A stretch of DNA of 61,632 nucleotides, filler included, from Dugesia japonica (taxonomy: Eukaryota): the NCBI GenBank assembly GCA_001938525.1. It is 6 parts of 6 records of this genome, joined end to end, with 100 filler letters (N's around TTAATTAATTAA, not from the genome) between each part and the next. Parts side by side here need not be neighbours in the genome. Positions count along the whole stretch, not along the records: positions 29,780 to 39,365 come from MQRL01616766.1; positions 39,466 to 53,010 come from MQRL01618800.1; 4 more parts are not named here. One strand, written 5' to 3'. Position numbers and translations under genes: made by a program. The number at the start of each line of letters is the position of its first letter. Within the stretch, counting starts at the first letter, position 1. Shown piece after piece: positions 11,320 to 55,200 of the stretch. Under the pieces are notes generated by a model. That model did not search any database, was not told the DNA's origin, and saw only the letters and a program-made list of their open reading frames with translations.

Positions 11320-11435
11320 TGTAGTGTTAATATTTTAATACTAATAAACAAATAAATTCATTTGTTTACATATTGTGATTGAAATAAACATTACCAATTT
11401 AAAAGTTGTTATTATGGTGAAATCAGTTAACAATA
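11320..11435 (+). repeat. 5' LTR (116 bp)
   Basis: TGTAGTGTTAA...TTAACAATA; direct repeat of 14364-14479 with 6 mismatches counted by eye. Confidence 0.93.
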
Positions 11436-11436
11436 A

Positions 11437-11451
11437 TGTTGTCAGAAGTGG
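11437..11451 (+). promoter_or_regulatory. Primer-binding site, tRNA-Leu type
   Basis: TGTTGTCAGAAGTGG is one mismatch from TGGTGTCAGAAGTGG, the complement of a eukaryotic tRNA-Leu 3' end; lies immediately after the 5' LTR. Confidence 0.75.
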
Positions 11452-14349: not shown

Positions 14350-14479
14350 AGAGGGGGCAGTAATGTAGTATTAGTATTTTAATACTAATAAACAAATAAA
14401 TTCATTTGTTTAAATATTGTGATTGGAATAAACATTACCAATTTAAAATTTGTTATTATGGTGAAATCAATTAACAATA
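14350..14479 (+). repeat. Polypurine tract (AGAGGGGGCAG) and 3' LTR (14364-14479)
   Basis: PPT directly precedes the second LTR copy; followed by TSD ATAAG. Confidence 0.92.
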
Positions 14480-14785
14480 ATAAGCTTTGTCCGTCTTTAC
14501 AATCTTCAAGATAAATTTAACAATATTGAGAAGTTCCTTTAGTGTAGTACCAAATTCTACTTTGTGAATCGGTTAGGTCTATTTAAACTTGAGTACATAA
14601 TGAAATTGTTTCGTATAAAGTAAAAATCAACTATTAACGAAACACCATTGTCTAAATCAGTGGTTGCTAATTTGACATAGCATGTGAGCTGCTTTTCTTT
14701 CTCAAAGTTTCCTTCAATATATCTCCAGTAAATATGGTTCTATAATTAAAAATGATTAAAAAATATTTTATAAAAGTAGGGGGAT

Positions 14786-15504: not shown

Positions 15505-17470
15505 TTGTCGCTATTTGTTCTGACTATACCTTTTTTTATTATATATTCTGAACTTATGCCTTCGCTGATGTTCCTTATTATATTCTTTATTTTTAACATT
15601 ATCCTTCTGCCATTTGAACTCCGTATCCGTTGTCATCGTACACAGTCTTCGTGTTTTAATCTTACTTGTCATCGGCTCTTTATGCTGCATTTCACATTGT
15701 ACACAAGTTTCGCACTCCACTCTGAATAGCATGTCCGTATTGGAATCTGCTTCTCCTTTTCTGTATTAAATATCCATATCTTAACTACTTAAGTAGTTTA
15801 TCCAGTTCTAAAACTGCGCTGCTATTGGTTTCTTTGTCTTTATCATGCAGGTTATCACCTTATGCTCAGCTCGTAGGATGAATCGTCTACCGTATAGATA
15901 ATGTCGGAAACTATTACAAAATTAGAATATTGCCAATAATTCTTTCTTGGTTATGCAATATCCTTTTTCGTGCGCGTTCATTGCATGGGACGCGTACGCG
16001 ATCAGTCTTTCTTGACCGGTCTCATCCAGTTGTGATAGCACAGCCCCGATGCTGTTAAAACTTGCATCAGTGTTTAATATATAATCTTTATTTCTGTCGT
16101 GAAAACTTAGTACTGGTGTTTTTTATTAAAGCCTGTTTCAATTCTTGAAATGCCTCGTCGCATATTGATGTCCATATTAGCTTGTCTTGGTTTCTGCCAC
16201 ATTATTTTTCTAATGCTTTGGCTTTTACAGAATATCCTTTGATGAATTTCCAGTAGTAGTTGCACATACTTATAAAGCTTCTGACTTGTTTTGTACATTT
16301 TGACTCTTGAAGTTCTGTCTACTTTCTATATTTGTAGGATCTGTTCGGATACCATTTTCATCCAAAATATGTCATAAAAACTTTACCTCTTTCCACAAGA
16401 GACTGCATTTCTTGGGATTGATACGTAATCTAGCTTTTGCTACTTCTTTCAGCACAGTGTCCACTATCTTTATAGCCTTCCGCTCCAGTTCATCGTCCGA
16501 TATGACTCTTCCAAATTTTACTTCTAAAACACCAATGTGTGTCTCATTATCTTNCAATCATCTTCTTTGGAACTCAAAGCCAAATTGCTGTTGTAGCTCA
16601 ATTTCTCCTTTAATGTCTGGACACAAAAAAATGCCTGTTTTGCTATCGTATATTTAACCATTTCTCTTTTTTGTCCAATACATGTCTCAACCACCATATT
16701 TAATAGCGTTTCTAGTATCGTATTGTTAGCACATCGTAATTTTACATCTACTTTATGTATTACTATATTGCTTAGTTCCTTAAGAACTCTGTTGCTCATC
16801 ACGTTAACTTTTGCCCCTGTATCCAACAGACAATCGAATGGCTTATCTTGAATTTCCATCTTGATACTGGGCATAGCTTGCAATCTATTCTATGATATCT
16901 GTACTCCTTTCCATTCTTTAACAGTCATTATTTCCGCTTCTCGATTTTTATCCCCACTGTTTCTCTTTTAACTTCTATCTTCCCTTACATTGCCGCTTCC
17001 GGTACTAACCACGCAGCCTCCATTGCAAGTAAAACTTTCCATTGTGTTTAGTATAAGGCTCCTATCATCTTGTCTTTTCACGGAGCCCTCCCATTTGGGT
17101 GTCTATTTTCGTTGTATTCACTTCCCAATCTGTCGTTATCATCGTATTCGTATATTTCTCTGTTAGGTGATTTGTCTCTGACTGCGTCTATGATATTTCT
17201 CGCATTTTTTCGTCTTGATGTTCCGTTCTGTGTCAACCTTTTATTGTTTGACCTCTTTTTATAATCCAATTTTTCTCTATCATACTCAGTCTTTTTATCT
17301 GTTGAATCCTTCTACCTGACGTTCTACATTCATTTGTTCGATGTCCATTAAGTGTACACTTTAGACATTTTATCTTCGTGCAAAAACGTCTAATGTGTTC
17401 GGTCGATCCGCATCCGAAACATTTTCTTATCGGTGTCAATGGACAATCCTTTCTTATATGCCCCGGCTTA
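15505..17470 (-). mobile_element. Gypsy gag-pol remnant (CCHC knuckles, protease, truncated RT, RNase H)
   Basis: CFGCGSTEHIRRFC, CLKCTLNGHRTNEC, LLDTGAKVNV, RLRINPKKCSLLWKEVKFL, ILNTDASFNSIGAVLSQ, AYASHAMNAHEKGYCITKKELLA. Confidence 0.9.
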
Positions 17471-17839: not shown

Positions 17840-18670
17840 AATTAGTTTTTAATTAATTTCAATAAAATTTGTAATGAATTTTGATTAATTTGTAAGGAGT
17901 TTTGATTAACACTTTATTTAATTAATGAATTATAATGATATTTTAATTAATTAATGAATTATTTATTTATTTTATGACAATTTTAGAACAATGCTTATTG
18001 TATAATAAATGATTGTAACAAATCATCTCCATTTATATCATTAATTGAGCTATTAACTAACGCTTCTTCTTCACCGATAAAATCCTCCATAACAATATTT
18101 ACTTCATCCAATTTGAAAATCAGACCATTTTACATCTTTATTATTTTCAAACTCACTGTCAGTCATTATTTCTGTTTCATCTATCACAATATGTATATTT
18201 TCAATAACTTTCTCTTTTTTTATTTTCTTTGCTGGTCTACCATCTATTTTAATCTCTAATATTCTTTCAAATAATTTTTTCTTATTCACTTAAAATGGTG
18301 CTACATGATCCGCATGTAATTTGTAAAAATTTGAATATGCAACTATTTATACTGACCTACATACATGGCATAGATAACACTTTTTGTCATAAAGGATTGT
18401 GCACAGTATTTCTCCATAATACTATGCCAATCACTTTTATGCAATCAATACACACAATAATCCTTACACAACAAACATTGTTATAAAATTGTCATAAAAT
18501 AAATACATAATTCATTAATTAATTAAAATTTCATTACAATTCATTAATTAAATAAAGTGTTAATCAAAACTAATTATAATTCAATAAAAGTTAATGAAAA
18601 ATCCTTGCAAAGTCATCAAAATTCATTACAAATTTTATTAAAATTAATTGAAATTAATTAAAAACAAATT
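17840..18670. repeat. Foldback element: inverted arms about 17840-17993 and 18476-18670 around a coding-like insert
   Basis: Arms are reverse complements, e.g. gttttgattaacactttatttaattaatgaatt vs aattcattaattaaataaagtgttaatcaaaac. Confidence 0.8.
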
Positions 18671-26163: not shown

Positions 26164-26659
26164 GTGAGTGATTTTTGTGCTTTGATTGCGAATTATTTTT
26201 TTAAAATTTTTTATTTAAAAATTGGAAGTCACAAATTATTCAGGATATTAAAATAAATTAAATTAAAGTTTTGGTACGAAAAATATGTGCAGTTAAAGAT
26301 TAATCCAAATATTTCTTATACTCAAATATTTTAATTTTCAAATTTTTAAAATTAAAAAAAAGTATTGCGAATAAGGTTTTGTTTCAGAATTTTTAAAAAA
26401 TAAAAATTAAATATTTAAGTCATGAATAATGTTTTATTTTAAAATTTTGTGAAAGTTTCAAATGAAATTTCGATAACAGATAATTATTTTCTTAAATTTT
26501 CAAAGTATTTTAAATAAAGTTTTTATTTAAAATTTTAAATTTATTAGAGAATAATTTCCAATCGAAGCATAGGTTTTAATTTTTTTTTAACAAATAATGA
26601 TGTTATAGCTCTTATTTTGAAAAAAATTTAATGGAGTTGAATTTGATGTTGATAATTCG

Positions 26660-27540
26660 ATGAGTTCTCAAAACTCATCTTACATGGTGGCAGGGAGGTT
26701 ATTGCCAAAAATATTTTGCAGAGGCGATGATCTAGAGAAGTTTATTAAACGGTTCGAAATATATTTTGAGGCAAAGAACATCGTTGGTAAGAAAGAACAG
26801 GAGCGTTTGATAACATGTATGCTAGAGGAAGATTTAATGAAAACATATGTAAAACCATTGAAGAAACCGGATGGATATCGAGACAGATTGCGATAAGCCT
26901 TTGAGAGTAAGAGAGACATAATTAAAGATTTCCAGAATCGTGTAAGCTATCGATATGGTGATGAAGAAGTTGCTTTTTAAAAAAGTGGAAGATTTGGTCN
27001 ATAAGTCTCTAGCAAATGGAGNTCTGGCGAAAGAAAAACCTTTATCAAAAATGATAATAATTTGTACAAATAGTAAAAAAACAGAAGAAAATATTATCAT
27101 GCAAAAATTGGAGAAAGTAGAAGATATAAAAGAAACGTTATCATTAGTTAAAAATATAGAAAGAAGAGAACCTATTAACGTATAAACTGTTACGCTAGTG
27201 TAACACGCGGAGAACGTTTTGGAGACAGGAGACAAAATATCGAGAGAGTTACAAAAAGAACAGAACTACAGTGTTGGACATGCCAGAGTTATTGGCATAC
27301 AAAAAGAGAATTTCCAAAAAATCTCATGTGGAATGTTGGACTTGTCACAAAAAAGGGCATTTAATTAGAAATTGTCCAGACAAGAAACCACCAAAGTGTT
27401 TTGGGTGTGGTAAGATTGTTCGTATCAGAAGGATGTGCACAGAAATTAATATGTGGTACATGTAAAAAACCAGGTCACAGAGCAGAAGAATGTTATTCGA
27501 ACGTTAATAAACCTAGACTAGAAGAGAGAAGATACAATTT
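26660..27540 (+). mobile_element. Gypsy gag remnant with four CCHC-type knuckles
   Basis: PKIFCRGDDLEKFIKRFEIYF; CWTCQSYWH, CWTCHKKGHLIRNC, CFGCGK..., CGTCKKPGHRAEEC; resembles the gag at 17233-17470. Confidence 0.8.
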
Positions 27541-29789: not shown

Positions 29790-32700
29790 TTTTTTCGATT
29801 AAAAGTAATATGAAATTTGGATTGTTGGCCTCTGATTTGACTTCTATTGGATGCAAATCTATGAAACGGAGAACAATTAGAATTTGAATTAAAATTTTTA
29901 ATGTCAGATGGTCGAAGAGAAGATGCTGATTTTGAGGTAGATGAAGACGAATCGGTACTTTTCATTCGAGAATACTGTAATTTGATATAAATATGAAAAT
30001 AAAATAATTTAATTGTAGTAAATATAATATAGAAGTTTATTTAATTCATTTTAATTTTTTGAGTTTGTCAATGGCAATCAAATTCATGCTCAACAAACTA
30101 AAAAAATCAACAAGTACATTCTAACGAAAACTCAACAAACATGATTTCAACAAATAAAACTAATCAAATCACATCATATAATAAAATTCATTCTATTTGT
30201 CAGGCAATGCAACGAAATAAAGTCTTAACATATCTTAATCTAACCTTACTGCACCGGTTGAAGGAAATAATTATCATTGACATCCTTTAATATAAAAAAC
30301 TCCGCTAAAATACAGAAATTATTTTATTATCAAACAAGTATTCACATTAATTAATCAATAATCAAATTTCATGCATTTCCTTACTTGCCATTATTTATAT
30401 TTTATAAATATAACAAACACATTTTTCTTACGTAAAATCATACTTATTTATAAAGATTGAAATATATGTTCTCTNNNNNNNNNNNNNNNNNNNNNNNNNN
30501 NNNNNNNNNNNNNNNNNNNNNNNNNNNNNNNNNNNNNNNNNNNNNNNNNNNNNNNNNNNNNNNNNNNNNNNNNNNNNNNNNNNNNNNNNNNNNNNNNNNN
30601 NNNNNNNNNNNNNNNNNNNNNNNNNNNNNNNNNNNNNNNNNNNNNNNNNNNGAAATCTCTCCAATGCATGTGGGATTACAACCATAACATTTAAATTAAA
30701 AAACCAGGCCAGAACACAAGCCAAAATTGGTTATAGATTTATTATTTAACATAATTATAACCTTATAGAAATAGTAGTATTGTTGAGCATCGAAGAAAAT
30801 GTATAAAATCAATATGGTGTTCTGATTTTAAAATCTTGTGCAGTGGATTTAATAATTATTGGGAGAGAATGATGTGTGAAGCTTCGTTGATAAGGGCATT
30901 AAATTATAAAATTAATGTTCAGTTGACGGATTCAACATCACTCTTGAAATTATTTCATTGATTATTTATTGAGATTGCATAATTGAAATTATATAAATTA
31001 TTTTATTGATTATTTATTGATATTACATAATTGAAATTATACAAATTATTTNNNNNNNNNNNNNNNNNNNNNNNNNNNNNNNNNNNNNNNNNNNNNNNNN
31101 NCATAATTGAAATTATACAAATTATTTTATTGATTATTTATTGATATTACATAATTGAAATTATACAAATTATTTCATTGATTATTTATTGAGATTGCAT
31201 AATTTAAATTATATAAATTATTTTATTGATTATTTATTGATATTACATAATTGAAATTATACAAATTATTTAATTGATTATTTATTGATATTACATAATT
31301 GAAATTATACAAATTATTTTATTGATATTACATAATTGAAATTATACAAATTATTTTATTGATTATTTATTGATATTACATAATAGAAATTATATAGTCA
31401 TTTAAATTTTGTAAATAGTTTGTTTTAATATTCTTTAATTGCCTGATGATCACGGTTATTCCGTTGAAATTGATCGCAACTAATAAATATTTTAAAAAAT
31501 GGTGTTCTATTTTTTATTTTAAAAGAATTACCATTATTTTTTGAGTTTTTATGATCAATGGTAAATAAGATATTAAACAGAAATTATCTAGAATTTGAAA
31601 AATATCGTAACATCTTTTGAAATTAAAAGATTCAATCAATATTGCACACAAATATGCTTTCCGAAATAAACAAAAACGTAGGACAAAGTATTGAAAAATG
31701 TTTACTAGTACCACAAATAAGCAAGCAGCTAAAATTACAATTTCCCCAGCAGAATTTTTTCAAATCTTTCTTTTTTACGATAAATTATTTTCCGCATATT
31801 TTTTTATTAATTGAGATAATTCCTGATCTTCGATAAAAACTACATTATTACAAAAATATTATCATTGGAAGCGCATAATCCATAATTTCGAATAATTACG
31901 AACTTGGTTTTTACAAAATTTCAATGTTTCTGATCCGGATGATGAACAATCATTATTAATGTTATGATGTCTTCTACTTCTTGGCTCGGTCAATGGACCG
32001 GAATTATCACTGAATTTATTGCCACAACCATTATAAATTTCTGGAACATTTCCATTGGGAATTGGATACAAACAACCTTCTGAATTAGAACGACTAGTAT
32101 TCAAGTGCGCTTCAAATGCATTAGATTCCTCGAGATCTTTCATTTTTCGAATGCAATTTTGAATCTACAATCATAAAAAAATTTAAATCTCTACCAAAAA
32201 ATCTCTATCTCAAAACCAATTTTAATTAAAAGCGTACTTGTTCCTCTTTTCTTTTAATTTCTATTCTGTGTTTTTTTTCGTTTTCTTTTAATTTACCAAC
32301 AATATTTTGAAGAGTTTCAATTTCTCCCAAAATAGCATTCTTCTTTAATTGAAATGAAGACTGGAGATAATGATAAAGAATTCAAAAATCAAACTCAACT
32401 TACAGCATCTCCAGTAATACATTGAGTTCTAAGACTAAATTTCGTCAATTTTATTTGACCTTTAGGATCCAATATCTTTAAATCTAAGGGCATAACTTTT
32501 GTGATATTCTAAAAATATAATAATAATAATAAAAATTACATAAGGCTGTAAAAACATTTTGAAAAAATATGTCGAGTTGCACAAATTCTAACTAATATGT
32601 GTTAAATACACTGATTATTGAAGATTTATTTAGGAAATAATTCTTTATCGCATGAAAAGTTAGTTATAAAGTTTAGTATAGGGAAGAGCATAATTAAAAC

Positions 32701-38831: not shown

Positions 38832-40104
38832 CTAAATCGACCAAATCAATATATTCTCTCATTGTAAATTGATAATTCATAGTTATTATAATTTATATGT
38901 ATTATAAATGCAATGAATTAAGACATCTCATATCAATTACAAATGCTTCATATTATCGCATACAAACGTTTAACATAATTTTTCATACTTCAGATTGAAT
39001 CAAGGGTGCAAAACATATGGCCCAGTTATAATTATCATTTTTAAATTAAGTAAACAGATGGATTTTTAATTGAAAATCAATGATTATAGAACAATAAACA
39101 TTTCGCGATATTGATTATATTTGTTTTAAGTTATTTGTTTAATTACAAAAAAAATTAAAATAAAATTAAGAATCCATCTATCAATAAGTAATTAGTGTTT
39201 GTCTAATTTTCATTATAATCATTATTTGTATTCCACACCAAAAGAATCAGCAATTAATGTACTCAGTATATTCAATTTATGAAAGTTGTATTTTCTTTTC
39301 AAATAATCTTAACTGTGCATATCTGGCAGCTAATATGACATTTTATTGACAAAACACAAAAAATGNNNNNNNNNNNNNNNNNNNNNNNNNNNNNNNNNNN
39401 NNNNNNNNNTTAATTAATTAANNNNNNNNNNNNNNNNNNNNNNNNNNNNNNNNNNNNNNNNNNNNAGGAAGAGGAGTAATTGTCTCCTAAATAAAGACAA
39501 TTAGAAGTAAATTTTATTCTAGAGAATTAAGACACAAGAGTTACAAAGCCAAAACCGAAATATAATAGGCAATCAACGAGTCGGACTCTGACAAAATAGA
39601 TTCCGATTCAGAAAATAGGAAACCACTTACAAGGTCCAACACTTCTGGGATATTCACCTCAAGTACAGTCCTAAAAGAAAACCAACTCGCTCGACGAGGA
39701 TCAACAAGGAAACCCAAAAACTCATCACTCTATTTGGACTCAGAAGAGAATATTTGTTCATCCAGGAAATTAGAACTTGACAAGCCAAACCCCAAATCTA
39801 AAACGTTGGAACCCATCAGCTCAAGCAGTAGTCCGAGTGATAAAGAAAATAAAGCTAATCCAAAAACCACATCCAGTAAAACTCCAGTAGCTAGTAATCG
39901 ATCGAGTGGGATAAACTATACATCAGACAAAAAAGAAATCATAAAAGTAGCCGATAGTAATCAAGTAAATATCGACTCATTGGTAATACGGCCAAGCAAT
40001 TTAGAAACTGAAATACCTACATTAGCAAACCAAAACCCGAAAATGGAAACTAATCTCGCAAAAGATAAAAATATGGCAACTAAAACTGAAAACCATCGAC
40101 CAGA

Positions 40105-41000
40105 GTGAAAATAAAATTTGATGGCGAATATTTTAGCGGAATACCGGAAAAGTTAGATGAATTCATCCAGAATTACGAAATGTATGCCAAAATCTGTGGT
40201 TGGGACGAGGAAGCAAAAAGGAAGAGATTACCATTCTACTTGACAGGAGTAGCCAAAACGGTGTTCTGGGATCACACAAAGGGTATGGAAGCCATCCCCG
40301 ATAAATGGGAAGAAGTGGTGAAAATACTAACGGATAATTTCCAAAATTTAAAATTGACTGGCCAGGATTTCGAAAAATTCACGAATCGAAAACAACAAAG
40401 AGGAGAAACTTCACAAGCATATATGATGGAGCTCAAGAGGCGTGGCAAATTAGCCTTAGGAGACAAGTTGGAAGATAGTTAAGTACTCACCATCTTCTTG
40501 AATGGATTACGTGACGAGAACGCCAAGCTAATGGTAAAATTGAGCAAGCCAGTAACTCTACAAGATGCTCTAGCCACGTTGCGAATTGTAGGAGATAGAC
40601 CCTCAGAACGAATTTTGCAAAGTAGAAGGGCAGACAGAGGAAACCACACCACGGATATCAGATTTCATACCCAATACGCAATCAATGATGAAAACTCTGA
40701 CCCCAGGGCAGGAACGGAATAACCGAAATAACAGACCTAATTACCCACGAGGAAATGGAGGAGGATTTAATAACCTTCGGAACAATTGGCAAAATAATCG
40801 AGATATAAAATGTAATACCTATAGAAGACGGGGACATATAGCACGCGATTGTAGAAGCAGAAGTAATAATAACAACAACAATCGATTTTGCATTTATTGT
40901 AAGAAGACCAACCACAACATAGAAACGTGTTTCTTGAAAAATCCAACCGTCTGCTATAAGTGTAACAGAAGGGGACATATGGCAAAAGAATGTCAAAACG
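40105..41000 (+). pseudogene. gag: Gag capsid and three zinc knuckles
   Basis: FSGIPEKLDEFIQNYE...GWDEE...LPFYLTGVA..FW; RKQQRGETSQAYMMELK; FLNGL; CNTYRRRGHIARDC, CIYCKKTNHNIETC, CYKCNRRGHMAKEC. Confidence 0.9.
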
Positions 41001-41419
41001 GAAATCAAACAACTTACAATCGGAATCCGAATACGAATTTGGATAATCTAATGCAAGAAAATGAGAGATTAAGACAACGGGTAAATCAGAACAAGGGACA
41101 AGTTAATTTAGTGCACCAAAATACATTTGGCAATGTATACCACAAGGTGCAACAAGAAAATGATTGGCTCAAGTGGCAAAACCAAGATCTGCAGGTACAG
41201 CAAGAGAGACTCGCCAAAAGAAATCTGCTCAATGAACCGCACAAGAATCAGTGTAATATGGTCAGGACACACCGGCAAATTTATAACCAGTATGACGAAA
41301 CAACCGAAGTTACCGAAATGGAAGATACTCGAAAACGAATATTGATTACGTCGCCAGAATTTGACTGGACCGAAGAGATCATCTATAAAACAATAAAACC
41401 GTCGGTAACGACCACCGGA

Positions 41420-44400
41420 AGAAGACGGGTGATCAACCAGTTGCTCCGATTATATCAGCACCCACAAGTACACTCAAAGGTAAGGGCTAACTGGCAGAAA
41501 ACGATATCGGATTATATCACCGAGCTGTATAAAGAAACCCAGCTAAAAGACTATGAGTTCGAAATTCAATATATATGGCATAGCAACATAGAGGTCATTC
41601 CAAAACGAGTTAAGTTACTATTAAAAGGGTTGACTGTACGACATTTGAAAGAAGCTATGAATGAGATAAAATGGAGCGAAGTAAATGGTATCAAGGATAT
41701 GACTGTAAACCCGCTTCTCGAATTACCACTGTTTAACGTGCAGCAACGATGGAATGGAAAGTGGAGTGAGCACAGATTGCAATTAGGTAATATAGGAATC
41801 AATATTCTTCCAGATGACCGGAATCTAATATATTACGGAGCACGACCCCACGAAACTACCATAATTAAATTTATAAATTGGGATTCGGTATTCCGACCGC
41901 AAACAGTAATTCAGGAAATAGAAACCGACGAACTATATCATAATCTAGAAAAAACATTCCTAAAGAAAATTGTTCCCCTCCAGTCTCAAACGTACATGCG
42001 GAAAAGATTGGGGACAGTAAGGTTAATGGACCATCTGGAATTGGGGCAAATCGAAGCCCCAAGACTATCATTATCCCGAATTGATGAGATACTGGTAGCC
42101 GTCCAGAAACTCCATGATACCATCAGAAGGGATGTATACTTAAAATTGACGAATCGATTATTGGAGTTATTGGAAGTTATAAAATTGATCACCACTGAGG
42201 AAAGCGATTGGACAGAATGGTTACCTGTACATTACGATTGGGTAATATCCAATATGGGATTATCGGATTACCAAGTATGGTTGTATAACTCAGAAGGTAA
42301 AATGAAACTGACTCTTACGGGTTTAATGGTAGAAGATCTGGAATCAGCCCTGAATCAAGCAGGTTATCCATGTGTAACTGATAAATATGTATGTACTCCA
42401 GGTGCAATAGTAGATTTTAATGCAGAAAAAGACATATCTACGATTTCGGAAAAAACCAGGAGAAGAAATCAAACTGGTAATATTGGACAAACGATTACGA
42501 CATATGGGTAACGAAAACCGGAAGATTGGCATTGGAAATCATGAAAGAAATGGAATATCTGTATAAACAAGGAGTAGAACTTATAAAAATAAAGATACTT
42601 TCCACCGTGTTAGGAAAGAAAGACAAACTAACAAAGGAGGAGAGGAAACAGTTGCTAATGACGCGTAACGACTTCCTCAGGCAGCGAATGGAGAGCAGAG
42701 AGGGTAAATGCAACATGATAAAATGCGACAGATGCCATCGAGAGAGGTAGTAGCAATGCGTAAGGTGGAAGAAATGGTTAACCGAGTACAGATGGAATAG
42801 GAGAACTTACCCCGAGAAACCTATTGGATGATAATGAATAGAATCTACGATATATATGATGGACTAGAAATACCGGAGGCGATCGAGAACCAATGGCTCT
42901 TGATTAGGCAGAAGTATGCCAAAGAAATATTGGCAACTACCGAAATTCGGGATTATCAATTATATTTGAATATAGGTACAAATGAACAAGAATTGACTAA
43001 ATACAGCCGATTAAAACCACAAGGAATAACCATGATGGATTTAATGGATGCCATTACTGATAAGTGGCGAGAACAAGGATTAAAAATGGTACCTCTGTTC
43101 ATAAATGGCAAATTGGTAGAAACAGACGACGAGGATAAACACATATTCCAGTGCCATGCGAAGCCCGGAGAAATATGCGAGCTCGATGTAGAAGAAGATC
43201 CACGAATAGAGCGATCGCCAGATCTTGAGGAACGAATGGAAGAGATAACAGAATTATACGTATCCGAAGTATTGTCAGGTATAAAGGAACAAGTAAAAGA
43301 AAATCAGAAAATATAGAATATTGATAACTTACCAATAATCACCACAAAGTCAGTTGTATTTCCGGAAGGGACGCCAACAATACGTGATATTCGGATGAAC
43401 TATACCAAACCGATAACGGAGGAATCCGCCACGTTTCACGCTATCAATGATCTACTAAGAGTAACATGAGAAACGCGATCAGTAGTGAATATCAGGGTAT
43501 ATTGGAAAATGATGAATAACTTACGGGATTTGGCAATCTATGGGAAACTCAGTTTGTGGGCTCGAGCACAATGGTGGAAAGAGAAAAATCTATACGAAGA
43601 AGAAGTACAAAATACGTCCATCATATCCGACTACTCCATCAGAGTTAGTTTGCTCAACAAGGAAGGGCACATAAAAAGGTAGATATGATAACCTTNNNNN
43701 NNNNNNNNNNNNNNNNNNNNNNNNNNNNNNNNNNNNNNNNNNNNNAACTATCCGACACATTTTGAAACCTATAAAAAAATGGTTATGGCCAAAATCGATC
43801 AAGTCCTATAAAATGCAGGTGGGAGCAACCATGATCATACTAACCAAGAAAGAGGATCACATTTTCTTACATGATATTAAACCAGGAGAGGTTACAGATA
43901 TCAAGTTAACACCTCAGAAGATGACGGTAGATATTCCGATACCGAAGATGCCGGATACCGATCAACTTATATTCAACATGATGAGTTTGTATATACAAGA
44001 AATACTACCGGTAGAGAATGAAAGACTCATAAACACTTATGGCGAAAATAAAGCCCAAATAAACATGGTTCGGAGTAAAAACCATGACACCCCAGACCTA
44101 ACCTCAGATGAAGAAGAGCCGGAGGAGGAAATTTCGGAGGATATTGGTCAAGCCCGATTGTTACCATTTAAACAGGATTTCGCTGGTCCTTTCAGTTCTC
44201 CACAGACAGAGCGGATATCGAAGATAATTGCGGATTTTTGTTACTTCCAGGAAAGGATACCTCGAGTAAAGCATTAAATTTACTAATGGATCTGACAAAG
44301 TATACTGAAATAGCAAGGGAAGTTCGTGCCAAGTGGGAATCAGTAATCAAGCCGTATATTGGTACAGTGAAAGCAAGTGCCAGGGGAGAAGATTTTCAAG

Positions 44401-45910
44401 TCACGATAGAATATCTGACACCAAACAAGAAACCAAGGAAGGAACCAGAATCGGCTGTCATGCACATACCACATTTTAACAGCACGTCAGCGAGGGAATT
44501 ACAGGAAATTTTAACATCATTAGATATAGCTGACCAACAGAAAAGCTATGCGATTACAAGCGACCACTTGAGATTTCCGATAAAGTTTGAAGGAAAACAA
44601 CATCTAATGGACGTAGGGTTAAAACCCGGAGAAAATACATGTCTCCAAATACAGAAACTAGAGGATTACATTCCAGGCCCAGTAAAATCTATGGAGGAAG
44701 TAATACAACAATTATTGGAATTATACGAACAAGAAATCAACAGTGGACAGTTATTTGAAATAGTCGACGATAGAACAATGGAGATTAATATTGAATCATG
44801 GGAAGACAGTAAAACATGGGGAAGTTTAGCACGAGTGATAATGAAAATACTCTTAACCTTGGAAGAAAACTTGGAATTATTAAGACATGACAAAGTCATT
44901 CAATTAGTTCTGAAGCTAAATCAATTACGAGCCATAAGTCAAATGCCTGAAGACATAATGGATGTAATATTAAATAAAGCGGTTCAAATGATAACCAAAG
45001 AAGCCGTCAAAGTAACAATCAGATTTCCCGACGAAAGTGAAATTCGTTGGCAAATCCACATGAACGAACTATGGGCCAAGTTGCGGAAGAGGATTGTAAA
45101 ATTTATGAATCAACAACGTAGCCTCGACGAGGAGGAAACTGGAGCGCAAACAGCAGTCCAGGAAGACGACATAGTACTCTATTACAATCACGTAATAGAA
45201 TCAGACCAAATGAGGTTGCCAGTGAAATATATGGGGGTTTGGCCAGGTACTAAATCAAAAATTTATGTAACAGCAAAGGATGAAAAGAGACGACGACCAC
45301 GAGTCTCGGAGGAGAAGTGTAAGTAGAAAGCTAGGGAGTTGGTGGAATATTACGTAGAAGAGATACATCCATTAGTATTCGCTAGGGCTAAACTCACCAC
45401 ACAAGAACAAAATAAACAACGAGTAAAGATGGTAGCAGCTCTGACTAACACCCCGGTCAAAGACGAGAAGCTGGAAGACAATTTACCGAAATTGTTCGAA
45501 TTACTAGTAGGCGATAAGTTGATAAAGCCGGAAATTATACGACGATACAATATAGCCTTACAACAAGATCTGGCCGTAGAAGATCTCAGAAAATTGCGAC
45601 GATTAATACTAGCCATCAAAGTAGCACATGTATGGGATCCAGTTCAGTTCAATAAGATTCTGGTTAAATGGCGGAAAGCAGAGAGGGGCCAGCCCACGCC
45701 ATTGGAAGTTAAATTCAGAATAATTGATCCAGAAGGGGACAAAATCGCGGTTAGAATACCAGTATATAATACAATCAAACACATACGGGATAAGTTACCG
45801 TTTAAGTCACCATACAAACTCTTGGATGAGGACGGAATAGTGGAAGACATCACCATGATTGGATTGATGAAAATAGATTTAGTTAAACCTAATACGTTGT
45901 GGATTTTTCC
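41420..45910 (+). pseudogene. Cargo: about 7 tandem diverged modules, each helical + ubiquitin-like beta-grasp
   Basis: Recurring N.LL.L...W...Y...D(Y/F)(Q/E) followed by T..(D/H)L and a (K/R/W)PGE-hydrophobic strand; last modules align by eye to ubiquitin. Confidence 0.55.
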
Positions 45911-46643
45911 CGAATTAGGAGGTACTCTCACTCGAAAAGACACAGATCCTTTCAAAGTGGCAGGCAAAACTAGGCCAATAATGGGAGAAACCTCAGGTAT
46001 GCTAAAAGAATATAAACACCGCACACAACTAGCGGCTAGTCAAATATTAAGACCCACAACAGATCAATCGGGAAGCACAGAAGTATCCCGAGAAACTAAA
46101 GAAACTCCTAGAACAAGCCAAGATTGGGAACGCGAAATATTTGGATCACCATCAGCAGACGAGTCAGCCGAAGACGAAGACGAGTTACAAATTACAAAAT
46201 ATTCGCCTCCAACTAGAAAAAGGGAGGAAAGAAAGGATAAAGAGCCGACACAAAGTAAAAAATACGACCCTAGCAAGGTTGATTTCGATGAGGAAGACGT
46301 ATTGGACGACCAACCCTTGTCACCGATATTAAGCAGAATAGCCAAGGAATTGCCATCTTCGGTAATGGATGATTTGATGGATACAAACCACCCACTAGAG
46401 ATGGAAAATCCAATGGAAATAGAAGACGAGGAAGTACCGCCAAAGCCAGTACGCACCCATTTTGATGCGGAAACCATTACGGAACCACAAAATAGAGGCC
46501 GACCAAGAACGAAACCTCCGGGAAATCCAGGGGAGGAAGAGGCAATGAAACAAAAACTATTAACAACATCAATAAGTCATCAAACTAAGCGACTAGCAAC
46601 GGTATCTCAAGAAAGATACCACGAAAATCCAACAGATGATGAC

Positions 46644-46920
46644 ATGCCAACCGAAGTAGTAATACGGCAGTTACTGCTAATGTTATATTCAGAATTAAAA
46701 ATATGGATTGGGAAGTTTCAACTATCAGATACTCTCAGACCACTGGCAAAAGAAATAGAAGCAGCTATTAAGAAATTCCCTGCCATTAAAGGCACCAGTC
46801 ATGGTACCAGAGATAATTTAGAAGGAGTCATGGACGAATTACTACAAGATCAGCCAACAAAGGGACGAATAGTAGTATCTTTAGCACATCTGATTAATCA
46901 AACGCATCTATCAATCGCTA
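46644..46920 (+). pseudogene. Bcl-2-like domain (BH3 + BH1), C-terminally truncated
   Basis: SDTLRPLAKEIE (BH3-like, cf. LRRIGDELE), then at Bcl-2-like spacing NLEGVMDELLQDQPTKGRIVVSL (BH1, cf. FEQVVNELFRDGVNWGRIVAF). Confidence 0.6.
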
Positions 46921-46935
46921 GAAGCAAGTCGTCAA

Positions 46936-47986
46936 AAAACTTCATTCTCAGTAAATTACCGAATGCAAGATACCATCGGGCGAATGTACCACGATCTTAT
47001 TCAAAATGACTGCACATTGAATAAAGAAATATTGAAGACAAAGTTAGCAATGGCGGTTACAAATCCAGATAGTGTCACTCCACTACTTATCTCTGGAAAA
47101 GGGACAATTCGGTTGAGTAGTAGGAGAAGTAATGTACCTATACAAATGCAAGGCCATAGATGCCGAGTTCTCATCTAATCCCAAAAACTGCTACAATGAG
47201 ATAGAAATCATACATAATAACGAGAAACGATACGTGCAACCAATTACGCGAATCATATCATCACTGGGTTATAAGCCAAATATCATAAATTGCTCTAATG
47301 TATTCGGACCACAGTATATAATGACCGATGGTTCATGGATAAGATTCCCCCAACGAATGGCAAAGGGGATCGAACCACGAAAATTCTCAATGTTACGATT
47401 AAATGGAGGTATGCAATTCACCCCAATTGATATAAACAAAGGAGGAATATATAGCTGAGAAGATTTAGAAAAGGCAAGAGAATATATCTTGTTCCCAGTC
47501 CGGAGAATGCAAATCTTATCCAACATAGTGCAATTAACTAGTGGAACTAACATAGACGGATGAGTAAATTATGACGCATTATTATCAGCAGACCACTTTC
47601 AAAAGGCCACAGAGAATGTAATGCGGAAAATGTGGGGACGATTTATCATATTTGGACAAGCGATGGCAGGATTGTTGGTAGTTATGCTGATAATTTTGGT
47701 AACACGAGTAGTGATTACTCAATTGTTCGCATGTTTTGATATATACAAAAGAGAGAAGAAAGTGAATTGGAAAATGGTAACNNNNNNNNNNNNNNNNNNN
47801 NNNNNNNNNATGGTGCTTAATAGTCACTCCAAGGATATTGACAGAGTAAAGAGATTCATTCGGAAGCTCGGACAAATACGAGGATCAGACAAGGAAGTTA
47901 TAATGCAACTCAGACTATTATGCGAAGAAATGAGCAACGCAAAAAAGAAAATATCTTATTTCAACCAATTCAAAGAAAGATTTTAG
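46936..47986 (+). pseudogene. Chuvirus-like (Jingchuvirales) class III glycoprotein/env, C-terminal half with TM helix
   Basis: MYHDLIQNDCTLNKEIL...NPD...G...VVGEVMYLYKC...CYNEI....NN...VQPITRII...CSNVFGPQY...W...GGIYS*EDLEKAREYILFP...MWGRFIIFGQAMAGLLVVMLIILVTRVVI. Confidence 0.8.
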
Positions 47987-48569
47987 AATAAAGACGAAAG
48001 TAGTAGTAGCAGCGACGACGATAGAGGGGAAAGCAGTGGAGCCCCTCATGTACCCAGTTATAAAACTGCCATGGAATACCATGCGGAATTCAAAAAACAG
48101 CAATACGAAAAGATCAGTAAGATGCAAAGACTAAAAAATGCGCTAAAATTCGGAGGAGGAGAAAGCACGCCAGCACCAGCACAAATGTATTATAACGCTT
48201 ATCCGCAACATGGTTGGNNNNNNNNNNNNNNNNNNNNNNNNNNNNNNNNNNNNNNNNNNNNNNNNNNGAGAAAGCACGCCAGCACCAGCACAAATGTATT
48301 ATAACGCTTATCCGCAACATGGTTGGCAACCCATGAACCAATTACCTCAACAAGTATGGGCACCAGGTCCCCTGTACAACAATCCGTATATAAGCCCACC
48401 ACAAGCTCCCAATATGGCACTATTAACGAAGAACAATGTATCAACTATGGACCGAAGAATAATCGAACAAAACCTGCGCACTCCAAATAACCAAATTACG
48501 GAGCAGGATAAGTTAGAGACTCAAACTGTATGTATGATGATCTCTCAGAAAGCAAAATTATTACAGAAA

Positions 48570-48880
48570 AGGATAAAAATCGACGGAAGATGGGTAATAG
48601 CTATTATTGATACAGGGGCAAGTACGAAGTTAGTCCATAAAAGGATATTAGAAGATTATCGCCTACTTAGAATAACAATCACTAAAGGAGTTATCATCAC
48701 TGCCTCTGGAGAAAAAATCTCACCAGTGGGAGAAGCAATATGTGCGATAGAAAGCGATGGAACCCAATTCTGGCATAAACTGCAAATAATGAACGAATTA
48801 ACATTCGACTGTTTATTGGGGTTGGACCTCTTACCACGCCTTTGTCCGGAAGGAATACTGGATTTGAGAAAATTAACAAT
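48570..48880 (+). pseudogene. Aspartic protease 1
   Basis: IAIIDTGASTKLV (DTG at 48609-48617), ITASGE, CLLGLDLL. Confidence 0.85.
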
Positions 48881-49184
48881 ACGGGAAAACTATAATCAAG
48901 AAAATGCACCGGTAGGATATCAGAAAACCCGAATAATAACCTAACAGAAACGACCACAACAATGGAATCAGCCACCACCCAACCAGCTGAGACAGCGGCC
49001 AACTGGCCGAAATGAGCAAAACAATTCGAATCAAGACCGTCGGAAAATCACCAATACAGCCACCTTGATAAGGGACGATTGGATAAGGTTCCAAGAACGA
49101 GAACCAAGATGGAAAAACAAAATACCAACAAACTCTAGTCATAACCCTTCAGATGTAGTATGCGCAAGTCTCAATGGCGGACCG

Positions 49185-49510
49185 GTATTAACCATTATAG
49201 TTAAAATCAACGGCTGACCCATAACAGCTCTAGTGGACACCAGAGCAACCATATCATTGCTGTCGATAGATGAAATCGCGATAACCGAATACAAAAACAT
49301 ACTACCCACAAACACTATAGATGATGTGGCAAATGGTAGTAGCCTCAAAATCTTTGGAGAATTGGCCTGTGAAGTCGAATATCAGGATAACAAAATTAAA
49401 CATAATATGATTATAGTAGAAATGATGGGACAGTGCATTCTAGGAACAAATATTCTTCCAGTCTTGATGAAAAATGGTATATTGAACTTCGCGACATTGC
49501 GGTTACAATC
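49185..49510 (+). pseudogene. Aspartic protease 2
   Basis: ALVDTRATISLL (DTG mutated to DTR), VANGSSL, CILGTNIL. Confidence 0.82.
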
Positions 49511-49849
49511 ATCGGAAGGTTATACCCACGTAAAGGATCACGAGGTATTTACTACAGAAGAAATTGTGGTACCTAGTAGATTCCAAGTATCTTGCGTAGT
49601 CAGTACCAAAAGTGCCTATGAAGAAGATTGTTATTTGAACCGTATGACGGATTTGCACACCAGTACGAGCTACCCACGACAGGAGGAATAACCGCGGTCA
49701 ACAAAAGTGGGGAAGTACCAGTTAGCTTAGTTAATTTAAGCCAAACTCCAGGATGGGTACACTAACCCCCATCGAACCAGAACCCGAGGTGATAGAAGAA
49801 ACAGCCCCTGAACCGGAAATTGATAGAACATTTAAAGTGGAAACGGAAA

Positions 49850-52420
49850 CTTTGTCAGAAGACCAGAAACAAGCAATACTTCAATTTTTGGAAGAATTCC
49901 GAGATATTTTCGCATGAACCAATGAAGAGTTGGGTGTGTGCATCGCAACAATGCACACAATTCCATTAACGGATGAAACGCCATGTAAACAGAAACCATA
50001 AGCCATGACAGTGGAGAAAAAAGAATTTGCAAATAAAGAAACAGCTAAGTTAGTGAAAATCGGTGTGATAGAACCTAGCTGCTCACCATGGCAGTCACCA
50101 GTGGTGTTAGTAGATAAAAAGGATGGGACACAACGATTCTGTATTGATTACCGAAGATTAAATGCTCAAACTAAAAAGGATACTTATCCGTTGCCAGATA
50201 TCAACGAATTATTGCAACTACTATGTAATGCTAAGATATTCACCACGTTGGATCTGCGAAGCGATTACTGGCAAATAAAAATCAAACCAGAAGATAGAGA
50301 GAAAACGGCTTTTTCCACATGCAAAGACTTGTATTAGTTTATCCGTATGCCATTTGGACTTACTAATGCAACAGCCTCTTTCCAACGAATGAGGAATTAC
50401 GTAACTCACGGCATATCTCAATGTATGGCCTATATTGATGATCTAATAATCTATTCGCCAACCTTTGAAGGGCACCTTAATGACTTACGTAGTGTGTTTG
50501 TACGACTACGTAAATGGAATCTAAAAGTGAAACCCACCAAATGCGAATGGGCCAAGAATAAAGTAACATATTTAGGCCATTTAATATCGGATAAAGGCAA
50601 AGAACCGGATCCGTGAAATACGGAGAAGATACGAAATCTAGCACCGCCAAATTGTGGGCTTAAAATAAAGGAATTTCTCGGTCTCGCGAACTATTATCGA
50701 AAATTCATTAAGGATTTCGCTAAAATTGCGAAGCTGATGCAGGAGTTGGTTAAACAAGATACTGCCTTTATATCTGGACCACAACAACAACAGTCGTTTG
50801 AATCATTAAGAGATAAATTACTAACTGCACCAATTTTGGTACACCCTGATTTCAAGAAGCCATTTATATTAGCCACCGACGCGAGTGGATACGCGATGGG
50901 TGCAGTGTTGAGTCAATTAGATGAACAAGGCAGAGAAAGAGTAATCGCATATTTTAGCAAGAAATTTCAAGGGGCAGAGTTAAACTACAGTACTACAGAA
51001 CGAAAAATAATGGCTATTGTAAAAGCCACCAAACATTTCCGATCACTCATACACGGTCACGAAGTATTAATTTACACGGATCATTTACCAATCACTTTCG
51101 TGGCACAAAAAACACTACGATGGAATAGAATGGCAAAATGGCAACTAGCAATGCAAGATTATTGTCCTCTATTAAAATTTAAAACGGACAAAGCCAACTC
51201 AAATGCGGATTGTCTGTCAAGAATCGGTGGACCAGAAGTCACAGAGGATGCACCAGAAGACACAGAAACATTTACATTGCGAGAATTATTAGAGAAAAAA
51301 GTAGGAATGGTATACTTTATACTAGCTGAAGATAGAAACTTCGATGGATTAAAACAAGCACAGGCAGATGACGAGGAGATCAAGATCATCACGAAATATA
51401 TGGAAAATTATAACTTGGAGAAGTTAGAATGTGAACCTAAGATGAAGGAATATTTAAAGAAAAACGGAGGGCGTTATGCGGTCACTAAAGAATGGCTGAC
51501 AGCTCAAGATGGAGAAAACACCGTGTTAGTCATCCCTAAAGCAAGACGGGATAAATTACTTGAACAGTATCACAATGGTGTACTTGGCGGACACATGTCT
51601 CATAAGAAAACCAAATCCAAATTAAGGCAGAAATATTACTGGCCACATATGACAGAATCAGTGAAGGAATGGATTGCTAAATGCCAGATATGTGCTGCCA
51701 GACGAGGAACAGGAAAAAGAGTAAAGGCGTTATTAAAACCTATTGCAGTACCAGCGATGCCAATGGAAATCATAGCTATGGACGTAGTTGGACCATTACC
51801 ACCAACCCTAAGCGGAAATATCTACATACTTTCCATAATGGATTATTATTTCCAAAGGCATTTCCTATGAAAAATCAAAAAGCAACCACCATAGCAGATA
51901 TTCTGGTACGAAAGTTTTTCAGTAGATACGGTACTCCGAAGAAAATATTGACCGACCAAGGAAAAAATTTCATGAGCAATATAATAGCAGAGATATCAAA
52001 CTTCCTCAAAATACACCAACTACGGACATTACCGTATCATCCTCAGACGGATGGATTAACAGAGAGGTTTAATAAAACCCTGATCAATATGTTGTCCAGT
52101 TACGCTCAAAAGGAACAAAATAACTGGGATAAACATATTCAACTATGCCTATTTGCATATCGGATGAGTGTTCAACCAGCAACTAAATACACTCCATTCG
52201 GCCTTATGTATGGCAGAGAGTGCAACATGCCTATTGATTTGGAATTCCAACCACCGATAACACAATATCAAGACGAAACAGATTTTGCGGCCAATTTCAA
52301 GGAGACCATGCAGAAAATATGGAAACAAGCCAAGGAGAATGTAGGATTCTACCAAGAAAGTTATAAAGATTTACACGATATAACAGCCGTGCAACATTCC
52401 TTTAAAAAAGGCGAATTTCA
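49850..52420 (+). pseudogene. pol: RT - RNase H - integrase
   Basis: SPWQSPVVLVDKKDGTQRFCIDYRRLN, RMPFGL.NA.ASFQ, AYIDDLII, LATDASGYAMGAVLSQ, YTDH, ADCLSR, HNGVLGGH...CQIC, MDVVGP, TDQG, YHPQTDGLTERFN. Confidence 0.96.
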
Positions 52421-54394
52421 TGAATTTCATTGGAATTATCTCATTGGAAATTTTACCTTATTATGGAAATATAACATAATCTGAACTTATGGTGCTGTCT
52501 GTGGGGATTGAAAAGAAAAATATTTTTTTATCGCAATTACCCAATCATGCTTAGTGGGACAATTTTCGTTTAATTTGGCATAGAGCAAATAATTAATTGA
52601 AATATAATTTTAGTTTTCTCTTCATGATCATTTAGTTATTATCAAAGGTTTATTAAATTTAAAACTATGTTTATTGAACATTTTTATTATCAAATTGACA
52701 AATAATATAACAACAAAATTTTTTACTTTTAATATTAAGGAGTGAGTCTGCAACGGGTGACGCAAATGTGCTTTGAGATTCCAATTACTATTTCAATTTC
52801 TACTTTGATTTCTCTTTTTTCTGTNCTGCTAACTGAGTAGTTTTCTCCTGCTTGATTAAACAGTAATCTTCTGAACGTTTTTTTTTCAAAGTTATAAATC
52901 CACGGAATTTACAATGGTGCGGTTTAGTATTAATAGTTTTCACAAAAATTGTAGTGTTTTGACAGTTGGTTTTAGTTAGTTTTTTGGTTAGTTTTCTGCT
53001 AAAACCAGGGNNNNNNNNNNNNNNNNNNNNNNNNNNNNNNNNNNNNNNNNNNNNTTAATTAATTAANNNNNNNNNNNNNNNNNNNNNNNNNNNNNNNNNN
53101 NNNNNNNNNNAACCGCTCGGATGACATATATCCTCGCTACACCACTGAATATCACTTCTTTGTCGCAAAACACGGATTAATTAACATATTTCTGAAAAAT
53201 AATTCACATAAAAATTTTATTTTTCTTTATTCATTAATCTATCATCAATTAATTTTCTAATTTAATAAAGTTATTAAATTTCAGTTTTTCATTGTCTATT
53301 GTTTTCAAATTTTAACAATAAAATCTTTTAAAAACGTTTCCTATTGAGAATTATGTTGATTATTTTCAGTATCATGCAGTCAAAATATAAAATTTTAAAA
53401 ATCAAATTTTATTTAAATTAATAGTAGAATTAAAATAATTAAAAAATAATTTTGTTTTGTCGGAATAATTTTTTCTAATTAAATTTGAAAACCATTTCAA
53501 GAGAAAATTGAAATTTATGTAGTTATTACATGAAATTCCCGACCAACTCTGAATAATAATTATTTTATATTGTATTCATTTTTTTTAATGTCTAACAAAA
53601 TTTTTAAATAATTCAGAAATTTAATCGTTTATACAAAACTATTTATTTTATTAAATTAATAATTAAAAGCGATTGTAAAATTTGTGATGGATAAATATGA
53701 ACAATAAATGTGATATCAATCAAAATTGAGATAAATATTTTTTCCGGACAAAATGTTACAAAATAACAAAGAAAACATTTTTATCCTTATTTTATAATTA
53801 ATAAATTGGTTTGAATATTAAGTCTTTTCATATTAAATCAAATAAGCAAAATACTGAAAGCCCAATTCCTTTATAATATGATATATTTCCAATTTCAGAT
53901 TAAAGCAATTTTCAAATCTTTAAAACCATCCTTTGATGATTTGCAGGCCATCAACATTTAGCCATTGTCTAAGTTAATTTACTTTAGTAATAATAATTTC
54001 ATCAGTCAGATAGCCATTTAACGCATCCATTCGAGATATTCATTCGATCAATGAATTCTTAAGCAGAGAATGATTGTTGAAAGAATGTCTAGTGTTAGTG
54101 TTTGAACTCTAAAAATTTTCCTCATTATTCTTTATTTTTCTAAATTTCTGACAACGCAGATAGCGATAAGTCCAGGTTTAATTCTCTTTTGATAATTTAA
54201 AACAATTCAATCAGCGAAATTTTATTCGACTCCTTCATTATCCGATTAATTTAAACAAAAACTATCAGATATTTTTCAAAAATCGCTTTTCGATTACGGA
54301 TCGTGAAATTTCGGATTATTGAATTAAATATTACTGGAAACGTTAAAAAATTGAGAAAAAGTTTATAAATTTATAAAATACTTTTCAAATAGAA

Positions 54395-54624: not shown

Positions 54625-55200
54625 GGATTAGGTCATTAATAAGAAGTCCACATTTGCACTTCGATGGTACTTTCGATACCGTGCCGTCGAAGAAGAATTA
54701 TTTAGTACATTTAGAAAATTAGTTGCGCTGTCTCCAGATTCTCTAAATAAATTTCTTAATTATCTTGGTAGAAATTATATAGGTATCGAATTTGATGGAT
54801 TGTGTTGAAAAACGACCACTTCAAAATTTGCTGTTGACATCTGGAATTATTTTAATTCCACTATTCTAGGCTATCGTAGTACTAATAATGTAGTGGAAGG
54901 CTGGCACTCACGACTTCAAAGAGCTACATTAATTGAGCATGGCACAATATGGAAGTTTATTGAATTTTTAAAAAACAATGAAAGAGACAATGAAGTTTTA
55001 TTTACTCAAATAATTGCAGTATATACTAAAAAAAGACCCCCAATAAAGAAAAAGTATGTTGTGAACAATTAAAAAATAGAAGTGATTGTTAGCTCATATG
55101 CTGAATATAAAAGAAACGATAAGATCTGTTAGTATCTGTTAACTATTTAAAGACTATTAAAAATAACTTCTTAAATATTGAAAAGAACAACAATAAAATT
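54625..55200 (+). mobile_element. MULE transposase remnant, internally deleted
   Basis: HLHFDGTFDTVP; FLNYLGRNYIG; FAVDIWN; STNNVVEGWHSRL; TIWKFIEFLK. Confidence 0.85.

Follow-up and report, generated by a model that had tools for sequence, protein, structure and literature searches.

A decayed member of a highly repeated Ty3/gypsy retrotransposon family in Dugesia japonica, probably Burro-like, with cargo and a gB-like envelope between gag and pol

The planarian Dugesia japonica harbors a repeated Ty3/gypsy retrotransposon family in which a long cargo region and an envelope gene (env) are placed between gag and pol. One copy lies at positions 39466-52420 of the window, the whole 61,632-nt stretch of DNA analysed here, which joins six parts of six records of assembly GCA_001938525.1; the copy falls in the part taken from MQRL01618800.1 (39466-53010). 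The best explanation, with a probability of roughly 78%, is that this is a dead, internally broken member of a highly repeated family that is likely Burro-type and in which an intact element would encode cargo and a gB-like Env within a single polyprotein of at least about 4,600 residues. This estimate adds about 320 missing env positions and a cut integrase tail to the 4,215 codons counted here, so the size fits ORF1 (open reading frame 1) of Burro, given as 4,873 residues for Burro/GYPSM1 of planarians and 5,140 in D. tigrina (PMC6431247, in the sections covered).

The element stands apart from its surroundings in composition and coding capacity. Between 40 and 52 kb the window has 36-41% GC and its + strand is strongly enriched in A, while the rest is AT-rich, mostly at 18-35% GC. 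Within the element, stop-free stretches of at least 100 codons take up 85% of the + strand and 21% of the - strand; in the flanks they reach 0-6%. A Pfam search of 19 ORFs, the source of the domain labels used here unless stated otherwise, gives the order Gag, three zinc knuckles, 5.9 kb of cargo, env, two proteases (PR1 and PR2), reverse transcriptase (RT), RNase H (RH) and integrase (IN), all on the + strand. The Gag capsid domain (40090-40590, with one stop) matches Retrotrans_gag over 40090-40479 at E 0.0035, below the cut-off, and the nucleocapsid (40811-40993) matches zf-CCHC above it, at E 1.8e-5. Its CCHC-type knuckles start at 40811, 40889 and 40952, the first being degenerate in this copy, with Tyr at the second Cys position. 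Capsid and nucleocapsid thus lie ahead of a pol region in the PR-RT-RH-IN order that characterizes Ty3/gypsy elements: PR1 (48543-48896; DTGA motif, near 48570; gag-asp_proteas E 5e-6), PR2 (49158-49511; near 49218, with one stop and a degenerate active-site motif; RVP E 0.007), RT with RNase H (49762-51200, four stops; RVT_1 E 8e-10 and 1e-17, RT_RNaseH E 5e-36) and an integrase with zinc finger and core (51530-52420, one frame change; Integrase_H2C2 E 1.5e-19, rve E 1.7e-6), cut near 52420 by other DNA. The knuckles and PR1 are separated by 7.6 kb on the same strand; base composition is alike in gag, cargo, env and pol (A 0.38-0.40), and the cargo ORFs at 44172-45326 and 45327-47009 keep one common frame, with a single stop between them. 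An earlier note on this DNA, made from sequence alone, had proposed a retrovirus-like Gypsy lineage, decayed in this copy, whose gag and pol are separated by cargo and a fusogen. The long same-strand stretch, the frame-sharing ORF pair, the two successive proteases, the chuviral Env with a tail running on toward the protease and the overall domain order, cargo labels apart, were all recovered here, and the domains, the family-wide repetition and the stop counts bear out the lineage. The note mentions neither the three assembly gaps inside the element nor the loss of the front half of env.

Is this layout a trait of the family or an accident of one locus? Contigs from four genomic runs of three studies, one run possibly being the source sample, were aligned to 39466-53010, and all 30 bins of that interval are covered. 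In run X1, summed depth, which is not a copy number, is 6,216-83,937 in the 29 element bins versus 151 in the flank bin, falling from 74,728 to 151 between neighbouring bins at the 3' end of the element. Cargo and pol bins share one depth range, a pattern repeated in the other three runs. Also repeated in other copies is a Ser/Lys-rich N-terminal extension ahead of Gag (39569-40108, +), an ORF with no Pfam match just downstream of the filler joint at 39366-39465, its true start not being visible. Of 40,784 aligned contigs, 19,705 are 90-95% alike. The element is therefore part of a large repeated family along its whole length, with the cargo as widespread as pol.

The copy itself is dead and cannot be active: it carries 14 stops and 12 frame changes, half of its env is gone and its integrase is cut short. 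The stops fall within 13 same-frame blocks of 4,215 codons, hand-picked after inspection, where about 289 would be expected; three of the frame changes coincide, respectively, with an overlapping assembly gap, a second gap and the likely deletion described below. Comparison of stops across copies draws on 40 of 2,471 differences over the element and 40 of 146 over 46300-47700; four of the 14 stops lie among these, and 97-100% of the depth of other copies there is free of them. With its stops and half env, the copy lacks the intact ORF that defines GAG-ENV-POL errantiviruses of the HSV/gB type, which bars the copy from that class without barring the family. The end of the integrase is replaced at 52420-53010 by other DNA that is moderately repeated (contig depth about 60).

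The envelope is recognized by PF24664 (Monjiviricetes_fusion) in three successive ORFs spanning 46954-47746, with E values of 1e-6, 2e-15 and 4e-9, all above the cut-off. The matches cover profile segments 319-369, 374-480 and 520-578 of 653, so that only the C-terminal half of a chuvirus-type, gB-like glycoprotein is present (46958-47780, +), with a transmembrane segment near 47645 (hydropathy 2.7). This half Env precedes a Ty3/gypsy pol, and its tail continues into a Pro/Gln-rich linker up to the protease (47781-48542) that contains two assembly gaps. Upstream, env starts only a few codons after the candidate Bcl-2-like stretch and in a different frame. Among 8 of 4,367 records, the alignment of one contig from another copy ends at 46954, those of two more start at 46958 with overhangs of 6 and 10 letters, and this point (46954-46958) has no small indel listed. 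This copy has likely lost the end of the Bcl-2-like domain, a membrane anchor and the front half of env to an internal deletion. Hydropathy exceeds 1.3 in no stretch of any cargo ORF, which fits the loss of the anchor. Searches for relatives of the env fragment gave 0 of 100 candidates among proteins, with no named Burro protein returned as a positive control, and no significant match in a sequence search of the Protein Data Bank (PDB).

The cargo begins with a likely coiled coil (41030-41250, +; a heptad-like sequence by eye, with a weak Spectrin_3 match at E 0.67) and then turns into a tandem array at 41423-44663. Its modules are about 105-155 residues long, each with a short helical part and possibly a ubiquitin-like (Ubl) part: M1 (41423-41887), M2 (42116-42427, partial), M3 (42801-43199), M4 (43482-43929, across an assembly gap) and M5 (44274-44663). 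Two candidate ubiquitin-like modules, M6 and M7, follow at 44853-45923, then an acidic low-complexity linker (46050-46600) and the candidate Bcl-2-like domain (46590-46954), all on the + strand. Leave-one-out profiles of the seven candidates, run against six-frame translations of the window, recovered M1 (E 9e-10, 36 bits), M5 (2e-7, 28.5), M4 (6e-5, 20.8) and M3 (5e-5, 20.6), each above the best background of its own run; since background reached 17.7 bits in one run, the scores of M3 and M4 are modest. M2 was missed by the profile, yet matches M1 pairwise (z 7.8; 0 of 500 shuffles), and M6 and M7 showed no detectable relation to M1-M5 in these profiles. By sequence comparison, then, a tandem array of four to five related modules is real; a set of seven homologous Ubl repeats was rejected, with four of seven recovered and M3 and M4 at 20.6-20.8 bits against a background of 17.7. 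The main background match of the cargo profiles, at 11850-12070 (E down to 5e-4), lies within another decayed Gypsy element of the window and probably arises through composition. Between M2 and M3, a small Cys/His cluster at a frame change (42700-42740), with no significant Pfam match, may be a zinc-binding remnant.

The Bcl-2-like label comes from a BH1-like pattern with a single occurrence in the six-frame translation of the window, at 46836, shortly before the domain is cut off. The full pattern arises in 18 of 20,000 cargo shuffles, as against 1,025 of 5,000 for its loose GR-hydrophobic core alone. Both cargo labels are plausible by position and motif, and they are given weight because the cargo order matches the published Burro order. 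What the earlier note called a Ubl array holds as an array, with a single sub-threshold Pfam match, on M6, in favour of a Ubl fold; its Bcl-2 domain keeps a BH1-like motif ahead of env and is unaccompanied by any Pfam, PDB or fold match. A single-sequence model of 882 residues has a pLDDT of 35, and a Foldseek search with it returned nothing in the PDB at E ≤0.001 and three low E-values in a viral library, at TM 0.06-0.08. Over 46300-47700, one of three RNA runs contributes 15 reads, all less than 90% alike (a related subfamily), and the other two contribute none, counts too low to speak for or against expression; no RNA dataset is listed as containing the sequence. Relatives of the cargo were sought in 1.84 billion proteins (one match, a low-complexity repeat judged spurious), in a long-protein search (0 of 5,494 candidates), in viral and metagenome contig scans (no confirmed locus) and by phage tblastn (none); as none of them recovered a named Burro protein that could serve as a positive control, the blank outcomes do not show novelty.

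The closest published counterpart is Burro (GYPSM1), a group of giant gypsy-like LTR elements found in dugesiid planarians. In the sections of PMC6431247 covered, Burro ORF1 is described with retrotrans_gag, two or three knuckles, Smc, MATH, Ubi2/SUMO-like and BCL2-like motifs, then an env matching mononegaviral fusion glycoproteins between BCL2 and PR, a dUTPase-like domain between PR and RT, and RT, RH and IN, all in one polyprotein; decaying Burro fragments are reported from Dugesia japonica itself. The element shares with it Gag and CCHC knuckles followed by a long cargo with candidate Ubl-like and BCL2-like parts, a likely coiled coil where Burro has an Smc-like motif, a mononegaviral-type env between cargo and PR (here its C-terminal half), a spacer before RT, RH and IN, the predicted polyprotein size and a high copy number. 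The PR-RT spacer (49512-49760, +) lies where Burro has its dUTPase-like domain, and 49500-49688 has no Pfam match. Unlike Burro as described there, the element has several repeated modules instead of one named Ubi2/SUMO-like motif and two proteases where the text (its figure not being covered) names PR once; this copy is, moreover, broken, with half of env missing and no long terminal repeat (LTR) seen. Burro1-4 of S. mediterranea are reported to carry BIR, MATH/TRAF and ankyrin domains, for which this element shows no match. As none of these was found in the ORFs scanned and Burro was compared by description only, the element is filed as Burro-like and not as Burro1-4. The earlier note names Burro but did not recognise the combination as described, which does not stand: with Ubi2/SUMO-like, BCL2-like and mononegavirus-like Env parts reported between Gag and PR of Burro in the sections of PMC6431247 covered, a fusogen, a cell-death regulator and a Ubl in one Gypsy polyprotein have been in print since 2019, and the present finding adds one decayed member.

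Other elements have captured the same class of fusogen. The parts of PMC13524379 covered list nine flatworm GAG-ENV-POL elements of gB type, six of them in S. mediterranea (Smed_errantivirus_1-6), which likewise place a gB/chuvirus-type env before a Ty3/gypsy pol and have listed spans of 14.5-18.0 kb; those copies are intact, whereas this one is broken. The env stretch given in their supplement, as far as covered, has no match by eye in this copy and likely corresponds to its missing front half. Neither "Burro" nor "Bcl" occurs in the main text of that paper as covered. Mosquito BEL/Pao elements with a chuvirus-like glycoprotein (Dezordi et al. 2020, cited in PMC13524379) belong to another retrotransposon superfamily, and the account seen describes no giant cargo in them. 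The covered sections of a bioRxiv Dugesia genome paper do not mention Burro.

The two proteases are related to each other: PR1 and PR2 share 28% identity (E 4e-10, z 18.7), and two other Gypsy proteases of the window reach E 0.5 or worse. Within this small comparison set, PR2 is likely a paralogue of PR1 that arose by duplication within the lineage, and both lie in high-depth bins. An exact-phrase literature search, which did not extend to the primary Burro descriptions, found no doubled protease in retrotransposons in print; the tandem protease is the sole feature not found there, an absence only weakly shown.

Several observations weigh against placing the copy in a Burro-like family with a single ORF and host-directed cargo. 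No paired LTRs occur among the 20 largest of 43 repeat families and no primer-binding site was seen; the element begins directly after the filler joint at its 5' end, and its 3' end is cut. No listed contig spans the whole element and ten of the 14 stops lie outside the differences compared, so that a single ORF in intact copies would be an extrapolation. The only Ubl match in Pfam, UCH_UBL1 on M6 (E 0.001; 19.5 bits versus a cut-off of 24), is to a module outside the four recovered ones; PDB sequence searches of the modules gave no significant match, and a single-sequence model of M6 (95 residues, pLDDT 55) shows a long helix and no beta-grasp. For Bcl-2, neither Pfam nor PDB sequences nor Foldseek gave a match, and the ORFs scanned have no BIR, MATH/TRAF or ankyrin match in Pfam. 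It is unlikely, if worth keeping in view, that the cargo does not modulate the host, with repeats that serve only as structural parts or spacers of an enlarged Gag and a BH1-like motif that arose by chance; these blanks, the helix of the M6 model and the frequency of the loose core in shuffles speak for it. The full pattern is far rarer, however, and sits directly before env as BCL2 does in Burro; the models are too weak to reject a fold, and the Bcl-2-like domain is shortened in this copy. A composite, in which an ordinary gag-pol Gypsy took up an unrelated nested insertion or contigs were misjoined, could draw on the three assembly gaps within the element (43696-43745, 47782-47809 and 48218-48267) and on the lack of a spanning contig. 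Yet contigs of other copies cross the gap at 43696 with 9-11 letters between its flanks and the gap at 47782 without indels, and the flanks of the gap at 48218 share a 59-nt exact duplicate, that is, overlapping contig ends across which the linker from env tail to protease stays in protein register. None of the 15 joints listed, of 105, connects gag to pol. Gag-pol adjacency with nested cargo in other copies and chimerism of the contig, the outcomes named beforehand as fatal to the proposal, were both looked for and not encountered. With the gaps bridged or overlapping, cargo and pol equally repeated, and strand and composition uniform, the layout is a family trait; nested insertion and chimera were ruled out on these grounds, and a composite of any kind is very improbable.

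The lineage is a separate matter. Membership in Burro likely holds, and it rests on a layout compared by description instead of on an RT tree or alignment; the nearest pol relatives (46 matches among 5,302 candidates, the best at 46% and 40% identity) include no named Burro protein. GAG-ENV-POL elements are polyphyletic, with members in nematodes, bryozoans and flatworms (PMC13524379, sections covered). A GAG-ENV-POL errantivirus lineage outside the Burro clade could therefore have gained similar cargo independently or by recombination and work in the same way, and the missing BIR, MATH and ankyrin domains, a second protease that the covered text of PMC6431247 does not mention and a cargo without relatives in protein searches and contig scans would all agree with it. 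The succession of Gag, three knuckles, coiled coil, Ubl-like and BH1-like parts, env and PR is nevertheless too close to Burro for easy convergence, a D. tigrina Burro-like ORF1 is also without MATH (PMC6431247, sections covered), and cargo searches lacking a Burro control say little, which makes such independent descent rather improbable. A further, doubtful proposal keeps the element near Burro as a distinct related lineage: its protease would have been duplicated within the polyprotein, working as a tethered, pepsin-like single-chain enzyme or splitting the cleavage of a giant precursor, and its BIR/MATH/ankyrin cargo would have been replaced by an expanding array of helical plus ubiquitin-like decoy modules.

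For a Burro-like element, a model in which the whole family works through one polyprotein could have merit. In intact members, one long RNA would be translated into a single chain whose Gag and cargo portions stay cytosolic. Ahead of env, in the stretch missing here, a membrane anchor would send the env ectodomain into the endoplasmic reticulum (ER), and the transmembrane segment near 47645 would return the chain to the cytosol, so that the polyprotein crosses the ER membrane twice around env; with the chain back in the cytosol, protease, RT, RNase H and integrase would lie on the correct side. Cleavage of the chain would then fall to the element's own proteases, packaging of the RNA to Gag, and its copying and insertion to RT and integrase; Env may carry particles from one cell to another. 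A possible role of the Bcl-2-like domain is to protect the producing cell from death, and the repeated modules could serve as ubiquitin/SUMO-like decoys that dampen ubiquitin-type defences, or as cleavage spacers.

The possible novelty is small: a second protease shared across the family, and a cargo module multiplied in tandem. Two-lobed pepsins presumably arose from retropepsin-like dimers by duplication, and if both proteases are intact family-wide, the element would offer a living parallel to that event. Burro-like cargo is still of interest, as its function is not tested in the literature covered, and a broken copy does not ease such testing. In the covered sections of PMC8532177, BURRO1 is transcribed in differentiated cells on SMEDWI-2 loss, and neither BURRO1 RNA interference nor RT inhibitors rescue the phenotype of that loss; the cargo is not addressed there.

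The remainder of the window holds other repeats. A second, ordinary decayed Gypsy element at 11320-14481 has a DUF7041 Gag (E 5e-10), a protease and an integrase, and is flanked by 118-nt direct repeats, 95% identical, which could be what is left of LTRs. Two short ORFs, at 26621-26896 and 54809-55072, have no Pfam match; by eye they resemble the beginning of a Gag and the end of a DDE transposase. Five 100-nt joints (at 8356, 19505, 29680, 39366 and 53011) consist of N runs around a short palindromic filler, which creates false families in repeat analysis. The - strand at 16304-16889 holds part of a further Gypsy pol, including an aspartic protease (E 4e-6). An inverted repeat at 17867-18602, with 139-nt arms that are 88% complementary and 458 nt apart, resembles a miniature inverted-repeat transposable element, and a 48-nt tandem array runs across an assembly gap at 30899-31452.

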